Origin: Bacteroides sp. | GTDB lineage: Bacteria; Bacteroidota; Bacteroidia; Bacteroidales; Muribaculaceae | DNA length: 64,000 nucleotides | Direction of reading: 5' to 3' | Assembly: GCA_023666905.1 (NCBI GenBank) | Contig: JAMPBC010000001.1 | Span: forward strand, 593,542-657,541 | Translations under genes and position numbers: made by a program | Part shown: one piece after another, positions 8,671 to 50,058 of the stretch | Position numbering within the stretch: the stretch's first letter is position 1 | Layout of the letters: each line of letters starts with the position of its first letter | Notes under the pieces: model-generated | What the model saw: only the letters and a program-made list of their open reading frames with translations | What the model was told of the DNA's origin: nothing | Database searches by the model: none

Positions 8671-10713
8671 TTATTTTACTTGGGCTCCGGGCACCACAGG
8701 TGCTGTGGGGCCAATGACCACAAGGGAGCCGTCGGCGTTTTCAGCCGAGAGTATCATGCCTTGGCTTTCAATGCCCTTGAGCTTGCGCGGCGGAAGGTTG
8801 GCAATGAAACAAACCTGCTTGCCCACCAATTCCTCGGGCTTGTAGTATTTGGCTATGCCCGAAACGATTGTGCGCTGCTCCAGGCCGTCGTCAATGAGGA
8901 ACTTGAGCAGTTTGTCGGCCTTGGGCACTTTTACACATTCCAGCACCGTGCCCACGCGCAGGTCGGCTTTCATGAATGTCTCGAAGTCGACGTCGGGAGC
9001 CTGCGGAGCTGCTTTGTAGTTCTTGATTTTGTTCTCCTCTTTGATGCGTTCGAGGCGGTCAAGCTGGGCCTGGATGGCTGAATCCTCAATTTTTTCAAAG
9101 AGCAGCTCGGGCTTGGCAAGAGTGCTCCCGGCAGGAATCAGATTGTCGCTTCCAAGTTGTGCCCATGTGAGTTCGCCCATACCTAACATTGATGAGAGTT
9201 TGTCGGCCGAGAATGGGAGGAACGGCTTGATGGCCACGGCAATGTTTGCGCAAATCTGCAGGGCCATGTTCAGAATGGTGGCGGTGCGTTCCATGGAGGT
9301 CTTGGACACTTTCCATGGCTCGGTTTCCTGAAGATAGCGGTTGCCTATGCGGGCAATCTCCATGGCCTCTTTGAGTCCTTCGCGGAAGTGGAATGTTTCA
9401 AGAGCCGCTGTGAGTCGGTCGGCTGCTTCGTTGATTTCGCGCATGGCATTGATGTCCACGTCCTCAAGCTCGCCGCGTTCAGGCACGGTCCCATTGAAGT
9501 ATTTGTGAGTGAGAACCATAGCGCGATTCACGAAGTTGCCCAGAATGGCAACGAGCTCATTGTTGTTGCGGGCCTGGAAATCGGCCCAGGTGAAGTCGTT
9601 GTCCTTTGTTTCGGGCGCGTTGGCGGTGAGCACGTAGCGCAGCACGTCCTGCTTGCCGGGGAAATCGGCGAGATATTCATGCAGCCACACCGCCCAGTTG
9701 CGCGATGTTGAAATCTTGTCGCCCTCCAGGTTCAGGAATTCGTTTGCCGGAACATTGTCGGGCAACTGATAGCCGTCGCCATAGGCCATGAGCATTGCGG
9801 GGAACACAATGCAGTGGAACACAATGTTGTCCTTGCCAATGAAGTTGATTATTCTTGTTTCGGGGTCTTTCCAATATTTCTCCCAGCTGTCAGGCAGTAG
9901 TTCTTTTGTGTTGGAAATGTAGCCTATGGGGGCATCGAACCACACATAGAGCACCTTACCTTCGGCGCCTTCCACCGGCACGGGCACGCCCCAGTCGAGG
10001 TCGCGGCTCACGGCGCGGGGTTGCAAGCCAAGGTCGAGCCATGATTTGCACTGGCCGTAAACGTTGGTTTTCCACTCTTTGTGTCCGTCCAGAATCCATT
10101 TGCGCAGCGCATCTTCCCAGCGGTTGAGCGGCAAATACCAGTGAGTTGTTTCACGCATTGTCACCGGGGCGGAGGTGAGGCTTGAGTGGGGGTCGATAAG
10201 GTCAGTGGCGTTCAACGATGTCCCGCAAGCCTCGCACTGGTCGCCGTAGGCACGGTCGCTGCCGCAGTGAGGGCAAGTGCCGGTTACGTAGCGGTCAGCA
10301 AGGAATTGCCCGGCCTTTTCATCGTAAGGCTGGAGAGAAGTCTGCTGCTCGAACTGTCCGTTATCGTAGAGCCGGCGGAAAAATTCCGATGCGGTTTCGT
10401 TGTGTATGCTGCTTGTGGTGCGCGAGTAAATGTCAAATGAAATGCCCAGGCCCTCCATTGAGTCCTTGATTATGGTGTGGTAGCGGTCAACGATGTCCTG
10501 AGGTGTGACGCCCTCGTTGCGGGCTTTGATGGTGATGGGCACTCCGTGCTCATCGCTTCCGCCAATCATTATCACGTCTTCGCCGCGCATGCGCAGGAAA
10601 CGGGCGTAAATGTCGGCAGGAACATATACTCCTGCAAGGTGGCCAATGTGCACGGGGCCGTTGGCGTAAGGTAAGGCTGTGGTTATAAGGGTGCGTTTAT
10701 GGTTTTTTTCCAT
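8671..10713 (-). CDS. metG: Methionine--tRNA ligase with C-terminal EMAP/tRNA-binding domain
   Basis: HIGH motif ([14 protein letters not shown]), KMSKS region, zinc knuckle [19 protein letters not shown]-terminal tRNA-binding domain. Start placed at the internal MEKNHKRT (ATG ending at 10713) because a -7 box sits inside the longer ORF. Confidence 0.9.
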
Positions 10714-10740
10714 AATGTTGACAATGTTTTTTATAATTTG

Positions 10741-10748
10741 CAAAATTA
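10741..10748 (-). promoter_or_regulatory. Candidate -7 box (TAATTTTG on the minus strand) for metG
   Basis: Reverse complement of CAAAATTA at 10741-10748. It lies about 28 nt upstream of the proposed metG ATG. Confidence 0.4.
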
Positions 10749-10844
10749 CAAAAAATCAGATTACAAGCCTACACAATCGGCTGAAATCTGCATCAGTCGC
10801 GCAAGCGTTTGTGAGTTTGTGCGGGGGGGGTGTCTGGCGAGGTA

Positions 10845-11071
10845 TATAAAAAACTAAGGAAAGTCTCACGACTTCCCTTTAGCTTCAAATACACAATTAT
10901 CTATAAAACAACTATTGTACGTCTGTCTATCTTTATGAGGCGAGCGGTTGGCAACATAATTAATCGCGCCGATTGTTCACCTGCGTTGATTGGGATTTCA
11001 TTCAGCGATGTCTCTTTTTTGAGCGTCTCTCACATTATTGATTTATCCCTTTCAAACACGGTGCAAAAGTA
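10845..11071 (-). ncRNA. Candidate stand-alone small RNA of about 210 nt, with its own promoter and intrinsic terminator and no convincing ORF
   Basis: Minus strand: -33 TTTG (fwd 11091-11094), 19-nt spacer, -7 TACTTTTG (fwd 11064-11071). Downstream hairpin GGGAAGUC-GUGA-GACUUUCC (fwd 10858-10877) followed by UUAGUUUUUUAUAUA. Longest ATG ORFs inside are 13 and 18 codons. Confidence 0.3.
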
Positions 11072-11179
11072 AAAAGTTAATTTTAATTTGCAAAAAGGTT
11101 AAATGAATTTTAACTAAAAAATAGTTATGTTAAAATTTGACACGGTTTTGAAACTTGTTTGCTTGTGAATTGTTGCAGG

Positions 11180-12421
11180 TCAGTCAAGGCAAAAGTCAAG
11201 GGCATCGGTGATTGCTGCGCGATCCATGTTTCGGCCAATGAACACGAGTTTCTGCATTCGGTCGCCATATTCGGGATCCCAGTCGCGCATCAGGCCGGGT
11301 TCATGTTCCATGAGTTGCTTGAGGTCTTCCTCGGGCGCGGTGGCGTACCATTGGCCAACGGCCGTGAGTTTTTTCTGGACGCCGGCCTGTTCGAACAGAT
11401 AGCTCATTTCAGGCTCGTCGGAGAAGTAGCACACGCCTTTGGTGCGGATAACGCCTTCGGGCCAATCGCGGTCAACAAAATAATCGAATTTGTTGATTGA
11501 GAACGGGCGGCGGCGATAGTACACGAACGTGCTTATGCCATACTCCTCGGCCTCACCCTCCTCACTGTGGTGATGATGATGGTGGTGGTGATGATGATGT
11601 TCATGTCCGTCGTGCCCATGATGTTCATCATGTTCGTGGTCATGTTCATGGTGGTGCTCATGCTCGTCCTGTTCTATTTCGTGGAGTGGTTTTTCAATTT
11701 CCTTGATCCAGGTGGCCGATGTTGCAACTTGTTCAAAATTGAACATGCCGGTGTTTAGAATTTTGTCCAGAGGTACGTCGGCATAGTCGGCTTCAAGAAT
11801 TTCGGCCTTGGGCTGGATGGCGCGGATTGTAGAGCGGATTTGGTTGGCTTCCTCGGCCGATACTTCTGAAATTTTATTGAGCACCACAATGTTGCAGAAT
11901 TCAATTTGCTGGATTATGAGGTTCTCAAGGTCCTCTTCGCCAATGTTGCCGGCCGTGAGAGCCTGTCCGGAGTTAAATTCGCTTTTGAGGCGCAGGGCAT
12001 CGGCCACGGTTACAATGCAATCGAGGCGAGGCGTGCCGAAGCGGTTCACTTGTGGCCCCATCGAGGGCATGGAGCAAATGGTTTGGGCAATGGGTTCGGG
12101 CTCGCAGATTCCGCTTGCTTCAATCACAATGTAGTCAAAGCGGTCGCCCTCCATCAGGTCAGTGAGCTGTTGCACCAGATCCATTTTCAGAGTGCAGCAA
12201 ATGCATCCGTTTTGCAGAGCCACCAGACTATCGTCGTCGCCACCCACAATGCCATCGCGGGCAATGAGGTCAGCGTCAATGTTCACTTCGCCAATATCGT
12301 TGACAATCACGGCAAACCGGATGCCGCGGCGATTGCTGAGTATGCGGTTCACCAGAGTGGTTTTGCCGCTCCCCAGATAGCCGGTGAGCAGCAATACGGG
12401 CATTTCTCTTTTCTTTTCCAT
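11180..12421 (-). CDS. COG0523 (CobW/ZigA/YciC-type) GTPase metallochaperone with an internal poly-His tract
   Basis: 413 aa. P-loop GYLGSGKTT, CobW C-terminal domain, and an insert HEHEHHHEHDHEHDEHHGHDGHEHHHHHHHHHHH. The 11 consecutive His codons at 11567-11599 are a CAT/CAC microsatellite. Confidence 0.8.
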   Translation of the reverse strand: MEKKREMPVLLLTGYLGSGKTTLVNRILSNRRGIRFAVIVNDIGEVNIDADLIARDGIVGGDDDSLVALQNGCICCTLKMDLVQQLTDLMEGDRFDYIVIEASGICEPEPIAQTICSMPSMGPQVNRFGTPRLDCIVTVADALRLKSEFNSGQALTAGNIGEEDLENLIIQQIEFCNIVVLNKISEVSAEEANQIRSTIRAIQPKAEILEADYADVPLDKILNTGMFNFEQVATSATWIKEIEKPLHEIEQDEHEHHHEHDHEHDEHHGHDGHEHHHHHHHHHHHSEEGEAEEYGISTFVYYRRRPFSINKFDYFVDRDWPEGVIRTKGVCYFSDEPEMSYLFEQAGVQKKLTAVGQWYATAPEEDLKQLMEHEPGLMRDWDPEYGDRMQKLVFIGRNMDRAAITDALDFCLD

Positions 12422-49037: not shown

Positions 49038-49212
49038 TGGATGAAAGGTTTTTTTATAATTACTGTGTTGTGAATTGTCAGGTATTTCTTATTTGACGCG
49101 GAAATTACTGAAAAGTTTCATTCACCATTAAAAAAATAACCAAAGGGCTCAACCGATTCCGGCAAAGCCCTTGTTATGGATTCAGGAGAATGAATTCAGT
49201 TTTGATCAGGAA

Positions 49213-49362
49213 TTATTTCAGCGCGTCCTTAACGGCATCGTTAGGCACCATCTGTTCCTGGAATGTATAAGCACCGGTTTTAGGTGATTTCACCACTTTA
49301 ATAACCTTTGAGTAGGTGCGGCCTTCACCTTTCTGAAGCGATGCAACGGTTTTCTTTGCCAT
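49213..49362 (-). CDS. Small basic protein, 49 aa (DUF4295-like), downstream of rpmG. It is below the ORF-track size cutoff.
   Basis: Minus-strand translation MAKKTVASLQKGEGRTYSKVIKVVKSPKTGAYTFQEQMVPNDAVKDALK*. ATG at 49360-49362, stop TAA at 49213-49215, 16 nt after the rpmG stop. Confidence 0.6.
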   Translation of the reverse strand: MAKKTVASLQKGEGRTYSKVIKVVKSPKTGAYTFQEQMVPNDAVKDALK

Positions 49363-49377
49363 ATCGTAGAGGTGTTA

Positions 49378-49566
49378 TTATTTGATTTCTTTGTGAACGG
49401 TTACTTTCTTGAGAATAGGATTGTACTTTTTCAGTTCGAGACGCTCGGTTGTGTTCTTGCGGTTTTTGGTAGTGATATAGCGAGAAGTTCCGGGCATTCC
49501 GCTTGCTTTGTGTTCGGTACATTCAAGAATAACCTGTACGCGATTACCTTTAGCTTTCTTTGCCAT
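49378..49566 (-). CDS. rpmG: 50S ribosomal protein L33
   Basis: 62 aa, [20 protein letters not shown]... typical L33. Confidence 0.9.
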
Positions 49567-49570
49567 CTTC

Positions 49571-49828
49571 TTATAAGTCTAAGTATTTGATTTCAGTTAA
49601 ATAACCCTTGTTGACGGCTTGCTTGATAGCAGCGTCAAGACCGTTCTTGTTAATGGTGCGGAGACCGTTGGCGGAGATGGTGAGAGTAATCCACATGTCC
49701 TGCTCTACCCAATAGAATTTCTTGGTGAAGAGGTTAACGTTGAATTTGCGCTTTGTACGACGCTTTGAGTGGCTAACGTTGTTGCCCACCATAGCTTTCT
49801 TGCCTGTAATTTGACAAATCTTTGACAT
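49571..49828 (-). CDS. rpmB: 50S ribosomal protein L28
   Basis: Internal start [33 protein letters not shown] (ATG ending at 49828). 5 nt upstream of rpmG. Confidence 0.85.
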
Positions 49829-50058
49829 GGCTGTTGTTCTGTTACTTAGCTCTATTAAACTTTTTATTATTTCTTTTTTCAGCAATGCTTTGTGGCCGCC
49901 ATCTCAGTCTCATATCACTGCTAAGCGCATCATATTTAACAGCTTTACAGGATGAGCCACAAAACAGAGTGCAAAGTAACAACTTTTTTGGGAAATCACC
50001 AAACATCGGCATAAAAACTTTGCAATCAGGGCTGAAATTTGGCGTAGAGAGGCGGGTT

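Follow-up and report, generated by a model that had tools for sequence, protein, structure and literature searches.

The gap between a COG0523/CobW gene and metG on the minus strand of a 64-kb stretch of Muribaculaceae DNA (contig JAMPBC010000001.1 of assembly GCA_023666905.1, positions 593,542 to 657,541; the whole stretch is called the window here) holds what, judged by comparison with related loci, is a real, conserved and previously uncatalogued small RNA (sRNA) gene family of the Muribaculaceae. It is probable, in our estimate, that this is a stand-alone non-coding sRNA gene, conserved across the family, whose product acts in trans through a nearly invariant module at its 3′ end. The compared loci show a conserved promoter, a conserved terminator, the invariant module, non-coding sequence and independence from the neighboring genes, and the alignments show a 3′ module under extreme purifying selection joined to a fast-evolving 5′ domain of variable size. 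Transcription would start from the gene's own Bacteroidetes-type promoter and stop at a strong, GUGA-capped intrinsic terminator, which would yield an RNA of about 211 nucleotides (nt) here and of 188–381 nt in relatives. The Muribaculaceae are among the most abundant bacteria of the mouse gut and occur in humans too.

Promoter, terminator and homologs

The initial annotation had proposed an independently expressed, non-coding unit of about 210 nt in an unusually long spacer, and the comparative evidence given below supports that candidate. The gap between the COG0523/CobW gene (11180–12421, with a Pfam match) and metG measures 436 nt to the TTG of metG, or 466 nt to the ATG at 10713, a start that agrees with the gene call; at 466 nt it ranks as the second-longest gap of the window, against a median of 45 nt. 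A −33 element of the Bacteroidetes sigma-A type, TTTG (11094–11091; features lie on the minus strand unless stated otherwise), is followed after a 19-nt spacer by the −7 box TACTTTTG (11071–11064; consensus TAnnTTTG), precisely where a promoter had been proposed, and the strict pattern TTG-N18-21-TAnnTTTG has just 10 matches on both strands of the 64-kb window. The terminator expected some 190–200 nt downstream was found by a terminator scan and by folding. It consists of the hairpin AAGGGAAGTC-GTGA-GACTTTCCTT (10879–10856), then AGTTTTTT; its core, GGGAAGUC-GUGA-GACUUUCC (10877–10858), is extended by A-tract/U-tract pairing to a stem that spans 10886–10850, and the terminator ends in a U-run (10853–10848). 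This is the sole minus-strand terminator-like site in 10000–12000. The predicted primary transcript of about 211 nt (10848–11058) was delimited by a rule that sets the start about 6 nt past the −7 box, with an uncertainty of about 3 nt, and by the end of the U-run.

To find related units, metagenome contigs were scanned for exact occurrences of the hairpin GGRAAGTCGTGAGACTTYCC. Of the 48 loci returned, 16 also have the T-run and are nearly identical to the window over the 40 nt that precede the hairpin, followed by unrelated downstream sequence. Within the window the 19-nt hairpin occurs once, even when 3 mismatches are allowed, and no occurrence is expected by chance. The family set comprises 14 sequences, the window and 13 units from metagenomes or metagenome-assembled genomes (MAGs), and 11 of these are clearly distinct; in the only other genome of the same species the spacer is identical and hence uninformative. 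The initial annotation had named conservation in relatives as a test of its proposal, and the decisive evidence for a gene rather than a chance pattern is that 13 other loci preserve the unit as a whole. With the −7 box as the anchor of the promoter alignment, a (T)TTG or TTGC element lies 19–20 nt upstream of it in every one of the 14 loci, and an A/T-rich element, TTTAGTTAAAA (11108–11118, about 45–55 nt upstream of the transcription start), recurs as ATTTTAGTTAAAA, TTTTATGTTAATTTT or TTTTTTAAGAAAAAA at the equal position, again in all 14; it may act as an UP-like element or bind a regulator. Most loci have only one TAnnTTTG within the upstream 420–450 nt; in L118 another lies within the gene upstream. 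The distance from the −7 box to the U-run is 188–381 nt in every homolog, the terminator hairpin is common to all of them, and the conservation of the sequence begins at the predicted transcription start.

The feature that stands out from the homolog alignment is the 3′ module, ACAAUAGUUGUUUUAUAGAUAAUUGUGUAUUUGAAGCUAAAGGGAAGUCGUGAGACUUUCCUUAGUUUUUU (10848–10918), with the consensus ACAAUAGUUGUUUUAUAGAUAAUUGUGUAUUUGAAGCU(A/U)AAGGGAAGUCGUGAGACUU(U/C)CCUU and then the U-run; a 35-mer from its invariant part reads ACAATAGTTGTTTTATAGATAATTGTGTATTTGAA. Over 66 nt it averages 96% identity, and 10 of the 11 distinct homologs have exactly the same sequence in its first 35 nt. The usual gene upstream of the RNA encodes an AraC-family regulator of about 300 amino acids with an HTH_18 domain, located on the same strand and 60–110 nt away in most homologs, and the AraC proteins beside the homologs are 62–77% identical. 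Set against the 96% of the module, the DNA identity is 80% in the helix-turn-helix coding part of the AraC gene (its best-conserved 150 nt), 66% in the N-terminal part and 40% in the 5′ domain of the RNA. That a 70-nt stretch is more conserved than the best part of the neighboring gene indicates an important partner, either RNA or protein. The AraC protein was also used as a second anchor that is independent of the RNA sequence. Its orthologs P0129 (79%), P0152 (72%) and P0173 (62%, from Paramuribaculum sp.) all have the module downstream (L140–L146), which is absent downstream of two more distant AraC homologs (58% and 56%). The AraC-anchored loci are equally invariant in the module, so the invariance is no artefact of the pattern search.

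The order of the genes in the window is DinB-COG0523-sRNA-metG. It is AraC-sRNA-metG in L140 (GCA_947627615.1) and AraC-sRNA-patatin-AhpC-metG in L104, L109 and L122, whose metG is 90% identical to that of the window; the gene order around the sRNA is thus reshuffled within one genus-level group. The sRNA unit and its promoter are kept through these rearrangements, including where the upstream gene is COG0523, as in the window, or encodes an Ala_racemase_N protein, as in L118. The genes that lie downstream are metG, a patatin-like gene, genes for a 704-amino-acid protein, a 395-amino-acid protein or a leucine-rich repeat protein, or convergent genes, the next gene converging on the RNA in L094, L125, L118 and L144. 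A single copy is present in the 64-kb window, and one syntenic position, 3′ of AraC, is conserved. In the window's species, the AraC ortholog (L139) lies on another contig, adjoining uvrA, with no RNA beside it. The metG and COG0523 proteins of the window are closest to those of Muribaculaceae MAGs, at about 80% identity. Comparison of the regions upstream of metG, as the initial annotation had suggested, covered 80 Bacteroidales metG loci, none of which has COG0523 upstream or anything similar to the candidate, and beside the nearest COG0523 relatives (82% and 80% identical) lies a thioredoxin or an unknown gene in place of the RNA. Taken together, the 80 loci without the element and the differing COG0523 neighbors indicate that the present gene order is species-specific and that the element is no general feature of metG, to which it is therefore not tied.

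Two side observations concern the window. The proteins of GCA_023665545.1, the MAG to which the window was matched, and of its sister genome GCA_023666185.1 are named "Firmicutes/Bacillota bacterium" at NCBI; this is probably a taxonomic mislabel, as metG, COG0523, AraC, the promoter type and the sRNA indicate Muribaculaceae. The longest apparent gap in the window, 49038–50058 (1021 nt), is not empty, since it contains short minus-strand open reading frames (ORFs), by eye L28/L33-like ribosomal proteins, that were missed by the ORF filter behind the gap ranking.

Anatomy of the transcript

The predicted transcript, folded as 213 nt, reaches −53.6 kcal/mol (z = −3.2 against shuffles). Among the checks that the initial annotation had advised, folding gave a transcript more stable than its shuffles, and the Rfam/Infernal search gave no family at threshold. 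The RNA falls into a variable 5′ domain (10919–11057), delimited by the fold and the comparison of homologs, and the 3′ module. It opens with a conserved 5′-terminal motif, UGUUUGAAAGGGA (11046–11058; family consensus YRYWUUUGAWAGG), and UUUGA(W) follows just after the start in 12 of the 14 homologs. The direct-repeat motif that had been seen at the 5′ end and before the terminator is present at both places, as UUUGAAAGGGA near the 5′ end and as UUUGAAGCUAAAGGGAA ahead of the terminator. According to the fold, the 5′ domain of the window is made up of an irregular hairpin, P1 (11057–10983), a GC-rich hairpin, P2 (10982–10938), and an A-rich linker (10937–10919). In the homologs this domain is 118–316 nt long with a mean DNA identity of about 40%; it is not alignable by sequence, and sequence alignments of it are unreliable. 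Compared with dinucleotide shuffles, the 5′ domain of each of the 11 distinct homologs comes out as more stable (z from −0.85 to −4.6, weakest in the window), hairpins like P2 with unrelated stem sequences recur in the relatives, and the 5′-terminal motif is predicted to form the 5′ strand of the closing helix P1 in most of them. The predicted structure of the 5′ domain is moderate and suggestive only. Its complementarity to the rest of the window is limited to chance-level matches.

The beginning of the 3′ module is predicted to fold into an AU/GU-rich hairpin, HP-A (10889–10920), with 14 pairs, five of which are G-U, and a stability of −6.4 kcal/mol, matched by 14 of 500 shuffles. HP-A contains a stretch with a weak resemblance to the R1 seed of Bacteroides sRNAs. 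The single change in it among the homologs, a C to U in L097, keeps the pair as G-U; HP-A is otherwise invariant, and hence no covariation signal can be read from it. The terminator hairpin, with its A-tract and U-tract flanks, could act both ways where the neighboring gene converges. A run of eight C lies just 3′ of the sRNA terminator (10823–10830), and CCCCC or CCCCCC occurs 5–15 nt after the U-run in L094, L095, L118 and L121, not in all homologs.

Outside the RNA and 3′ of its terminator, metG has a −7 box of its own, TAATTTTG (10741–10748), located 27 nt before the ATG at 10713. No −33 element is present at the canonical spacing from this box, and the extent to which metG is transcribed independently is thus something that we infer. 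At the other end, the terminator scan found no terminator-like site between the COG0523 stop (11180) and the sRNA promoter (11100–11179), so the sRNA terminator may also end COG0523 transcripts.

Proposed function and competing explanations

If the gene encodes a trans-acting sRNA, the AU-rich stretch of about 38 nt in the module would base-pair with at least one RNA target that is as conserved as itself, and/or the module would dock an RNA-binding protein, such as a homolog of RbpB, of the RNA recognition motif (RRM) type. The GUGA hairpin and the U-tail would provide termination and stability, and the 5′ domain might modulate stability or access to the module, or might be removed by processing. 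The usual place of the gene directly 3′ of AraC suggests that the sRNA and the adjacent regulator may belong to one circuit. A rearrangement would have put the RNA between the COG0523 gene and metG in the window's species, and its adjacency to metG would then reflect history, not function. There is a small chance that the RNA is, more elaborately, a modular riboregulator of a type without precedent, in which an ultraconserved 70-nt effector module is coupled to a fast-evolving 5′ domain with a three-fold range of sizes, serving as a lineage-specific sensor or gate, or else as a pro-sequence whose cleavage sets free an sRNA of FopS size. Such a gate might work if the UUUGA-type motifs, which occur 5′-terminally and just ahead of the terminator, paired in alternative ways. 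Were this the case, the Muribaculaceae would have a central post-transcriptional regulator of their own, possibly wired to the adjacent AraC-family regulator.

Several results weigh against the trans-acting sRNA explanation. The stability of the fold comes mostly from the 3′ module, with the 5′ domain of the window alone at z = −0.85, and the closing helix P1 barely beats shuffles (mean z = −1.0). The AU-rich stretch is predicted to be paired within HP-A rather than to form an open seed, and an invariant stretch of 38 nt, far longer than the usual seed, favors protein binding or a more complex role. Nor did the search for partners succeed: duplex prediction against about 50 start-codon regions in the window gave nothing above shuffled seeds, there was no excess of complementary 10-mers in the window and no near-complement of the module in about 1.1 Mb of collected sequence, and the AraC start region showed no pairing that is conserved. 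Both ends of the transcript, and any processing, are deduced from conserved signals, and, without a terminator between the COG0523 stop and the sRNA promoter, read-through from upstream is possible.

The explanation that comes closest to the trans-acting sRNA, and that would refine rather than exclude it, is that the RNA is a diverged member of an "R1" superfamily with the Bacteroides sRNAs GibS, FopS and BTnc231. Its U-rich seed and GUGA hairpin would pair with the start-codon regions of mRNAs for SusC-like transporters or glycoside hydrolases under RbpB control, and the 3′ module would perhaps be released by processing. We regard this as possible, though on balance doubtful. BTnc231 (RF04180) gave the sole Rfam signal, 26.1 bits over 10915–10840 (E = 0.003 in a 601-nt search), and the order of the elements is the same, with a GU-rich run, AUAGA, UUUGAAG/UUUAAGG, an A-tract, the GUGA hairpin and a U-run. 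Moreover, a GUGA loop caps the first hairpin in all three Bacteroides families, and a bona fide FopS (RF04319) in a crocodile gut metagenome (L134:6489–6570, minus strand, 56.3 bits against the gathering score of 56), with a promoter directly upstream, has a hairpin identical over 20 nt to that of the Muribaculaceae RNA. The BTnc231 score, however, is far under the gathering score of 80.4, the alignment covers model positions 1–80 only, with 74 of the 154 positions deleted, and the homologous loci have no BTnc231 match at E≤0.05. The FopS and GibS models are silent at E≤10, and similarity to the R1 consensus before the hairpin is no better than in shuffles for these two and marginal for BTnc231. 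The identical hairpin also occurs in unrelated high-GC elements, and, as L134 was itself found with the hairpin pattern, its identity is partly an artefact of the search. The seed-like part, furthermore, is not 5′-terminal and lacks a CAU anti-start codon, and FopS is present in 12–15 copies per genome, against an apparently single-copy, syntenic RNA. The length of the invariant stretch together with the predicted HP-A keeps a role in protein binding open. The RNA could be part of a ribonucleoprotein, a protein sponge or a scaffold rather than a base-pairing regulator, the invariant 70 nt being a protein-recognition platform. In favor of this, HP-A and the GNRA-capped hairpin give the RNA defined structure, no target was detectable, and the RNA is apparently single-copy and syntenic, like housekeeping RNAs. 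We think this rather unlikely, as no partner gene is consistently adjacent except the AraC regulator, no Rfam housekeeping family was matched, and the RNA seems to be confined to one bacterial family, with distant AraC loci lacking it.

The remaining explanations deny the RNA its own gene. It might be the 3′ untranslated region (UTR) of the upstream gene, COG0523 here and AraC elsewhere, possibly processed to an sRNA, without a promoter of its own. The position mostly 60–110 nt 3′ of AraC on the same strand and the missing terminator downstream of COG0523 would be in keeping with this, as would the precedent of FopS-14 of B. thetaiotaomicron, which is 3′-UTR-derived (PMC11697453). The full promoter (−33, −7 and A/T motif) is nevertheless kept in 14 of 14 loci and in spite of the swaps of the upstream gene, and it is from the predicted start onward, rather than in the spacer between gene and promoter, that the sequence is conserved, which makes this origin improbable. 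That the conserved part is a DNA element (an integration or recombination site, or a mobile terminator cassette) or a small-protein gene is very unlikely, even though an invariant stretch of about 70 bp lies between variable flanks and ORFs of 13–83 codons enter the module in several homologs. The promoter and the terminator point the same way in every locus, and their conservation goes together with that of the module; a dif- or terminus-type site was rejected, as the GC skew does not switch at the locus, and a phage or mobile origin was rejected, since searches of viral contigs and of phage genomes found no copy of the module. The longest ATG-initiated sense ORF has 18 codons, the figure reported initially, and a conserved small ORF, which the initial annotation had held would overturn its proposal, was found among the homologs on neither strand. 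The ORFs that enter the module use two different frames and have unrelated N-termini and lengths, and L096 has no ATG ORF at all. An 80-codon GTG ORF antisense to the sRNA in the window (10830–11072, plus strand) has no Pfam match, is not conserved and is most likely spurious, and a small protein was rejected on these grounds. The least probable of the explanations is a riboswitch-like cis leader or attenuator of metG, in which the 5′ and pre-terminator motifs would be the alternative partners of a switching strand. It could draw on the window and L140, where metG is the gene that follows the RNA, and on the lack of a canonical −33 element for the metG −7 box. It is already largely refuted by the varied downstream genes, most of which are unrelated to metG and some of which converge on the RNA; in addition, there is no Met-rich leader peptide, no riboswitch or T-box match in the Rfam searches of the locus and no such element in the metG loci of 80 other Bacteroidales, and metG has its own −7 box.

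Relation to known RNA families

As a consequence for annotation, the gap upstream of metG is to be read as a gene and not as a metG leader. The locus defines an sRNA family absent from Rfam, with a clear promoter and terminator and a conserved genomic partner of the AraC type; at gathering thresholds, Rfam gave no match in the whole window and none in 18 Bacteroidales metG loci, and only tRNAs in the homologous loci. A full-text literature search found no paper on regulatory RNAs of the Muribaculaceae. The possible link to GibS, FopS and BTnc231, the polysaccharide-utilization sRNAs of Bacteroides, would, if true, extend that theme to a second major gut family.

The hairpin pattern also caught other RNAs. 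About 15 high-GC, soil-type metagenome contigs have in common a multi-hairpin element of about 150 nt around the match (L093, L099, L105, L106, L107, L110, L114, L116, L120, L124, L127, L130, L133, L135 and L138). It contains CGCGGAACGGGCUUUGCCCGUUCCGC, a GCCGCGCG...CGCCCGGC hairpin and CGC[GGAAAGUCGUGAGACUUUCC]GCGAAAG, and its closing pairs show the compensatory changes CGCGG/CCGCG, CGGGG/CCCCG and CGUGG/CCACG. Rfam searches at the gathering thresholds, and for L106 also at E≤1, matched it to no family. The element could be a structured RNA that has yet to be described, and it is unrelated to the sRNA save for the hairpin core. Two loci from fermentation metagenomes, L091:8914–9118 and L112, carry the pemK RNA motif (RF02913; 41.5 bits in L091).

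The initial annotation had likened the unit to known Bacteroidales sRNAs, an apt comparison in view of the sub-threshold BTnc231 signal, and had raised 6S RNA as a candidate. The latter did not hold. The length of about 190–210 nt and the non-coding nature are similar; the ends of the Muribaculaceae RNA, however, are not paired with each other, its 5′ and 3′ domains are separate in the minimum free energy folds, its length varies from 188 to 381 nt among homologs, and it ends in a classical intrinsic terminator. With no RF00013 or RF01685 match at E≤10 and a fold that is not a closed rod with a central bubble, 6S RNA was rejected.

The three Bacteroides sRNAs offer a closer comparison. Sigma-A type promoters and intrinsic terminators are common to GibS, FopS and BTnc231, all of which bind RbpB (PMC7366714, PMC11697453). 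FopS and GibS pair with start-codon regions and repress translation, FopS targeting susC-like mRNAs with RbpB as its antagonist and GibS a glycoside hydrolase mRNA (PMC11697453). BTnc231 is an abundant intergenic sRNA of B. thetaiotaomicron (205 nt; NC_004663.1:5366995-5367200) that was validated by Northern blot, is bound by RbpB and has an unknown function (PMC7366714; bioRxiv 10.1101/2023.12.22.572801). Its model opens with a U-rich single-stranded stretch; next comes a long hairpin, whose core is GGAAGUC-GUGA-GACUUCC, and GibS and FopS arrange their R1 seed and GUGA hairpin in this way too. The Muribaculaceae RNA resembles BTnc231 in its size (about 205 nt), its sigma-A type promoter and intrinsic terminator, a near-identical GUGA-capped hairpin (GGAAGUCGUGAGACUUCC against GGGAAGUCGUGAGACUUUCC), a U-rich AUAGA stretch before the hairpin and the A-tract/U-tract pairing around it. 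The module is at the 5′ end of BTnc231, however, and is followed by about 75 nt more that include a 3′ hairpin, whereas in the Muribaculaceae RNA the matched module is the 3′ end and 140 nt precede it. BTnc231 also belongs to another bacterial family, is not near metG in the Bacteroides loci examined, and has a similarity outside the hairpin that is marginal (115 of 2000 shuffles are equal, p about 0.06).

FopS, a group of paralogous Bacteroidaceae sRNAs of about 70 nt with a 5′ R1′ seed, corresponds in size and layout to the 3′ module, which is nearly a whole FopS RNA, with an AU-rich part of about 40 nt, a GUGA-loop hairpin and a U-run. Differences are that the Muribaculaceae module is not at the 5′ end of its transcript, which starts 140 nt upstream, that the RNA has no CAU anti-start codon and a paired AU-rich part by prediction, and that it is not multicopy as far as seen in the window. 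GibS (RF04182), a two-seed (R1, R2) sRNA of B. thetaiotaomicron, is likewise intergenic, 140–200 nt long and composed of several hairpins and a terminator, with a GUGA loop in the first hairpin. It differs in having no model match and no significant sequence similarity to the Muribaculaceae RNA, and its promoter is the PM2 motif (PMC11697453). The sub-threshold score, the seed similarity not above shuffles and the 3′ placement of the module speak against filing the RNA in the BTnc231, FopS or GibS families. The closest fit is the canonical intergenic Bacteroidales sRNA, whose sequence features, namely −33 TTTG and −7 TAnnTTTG elements at 19–21 nt, a GC-rich hairpin with a U-run and no ORF, are all present in this RNA and conserved across the 14 loci.

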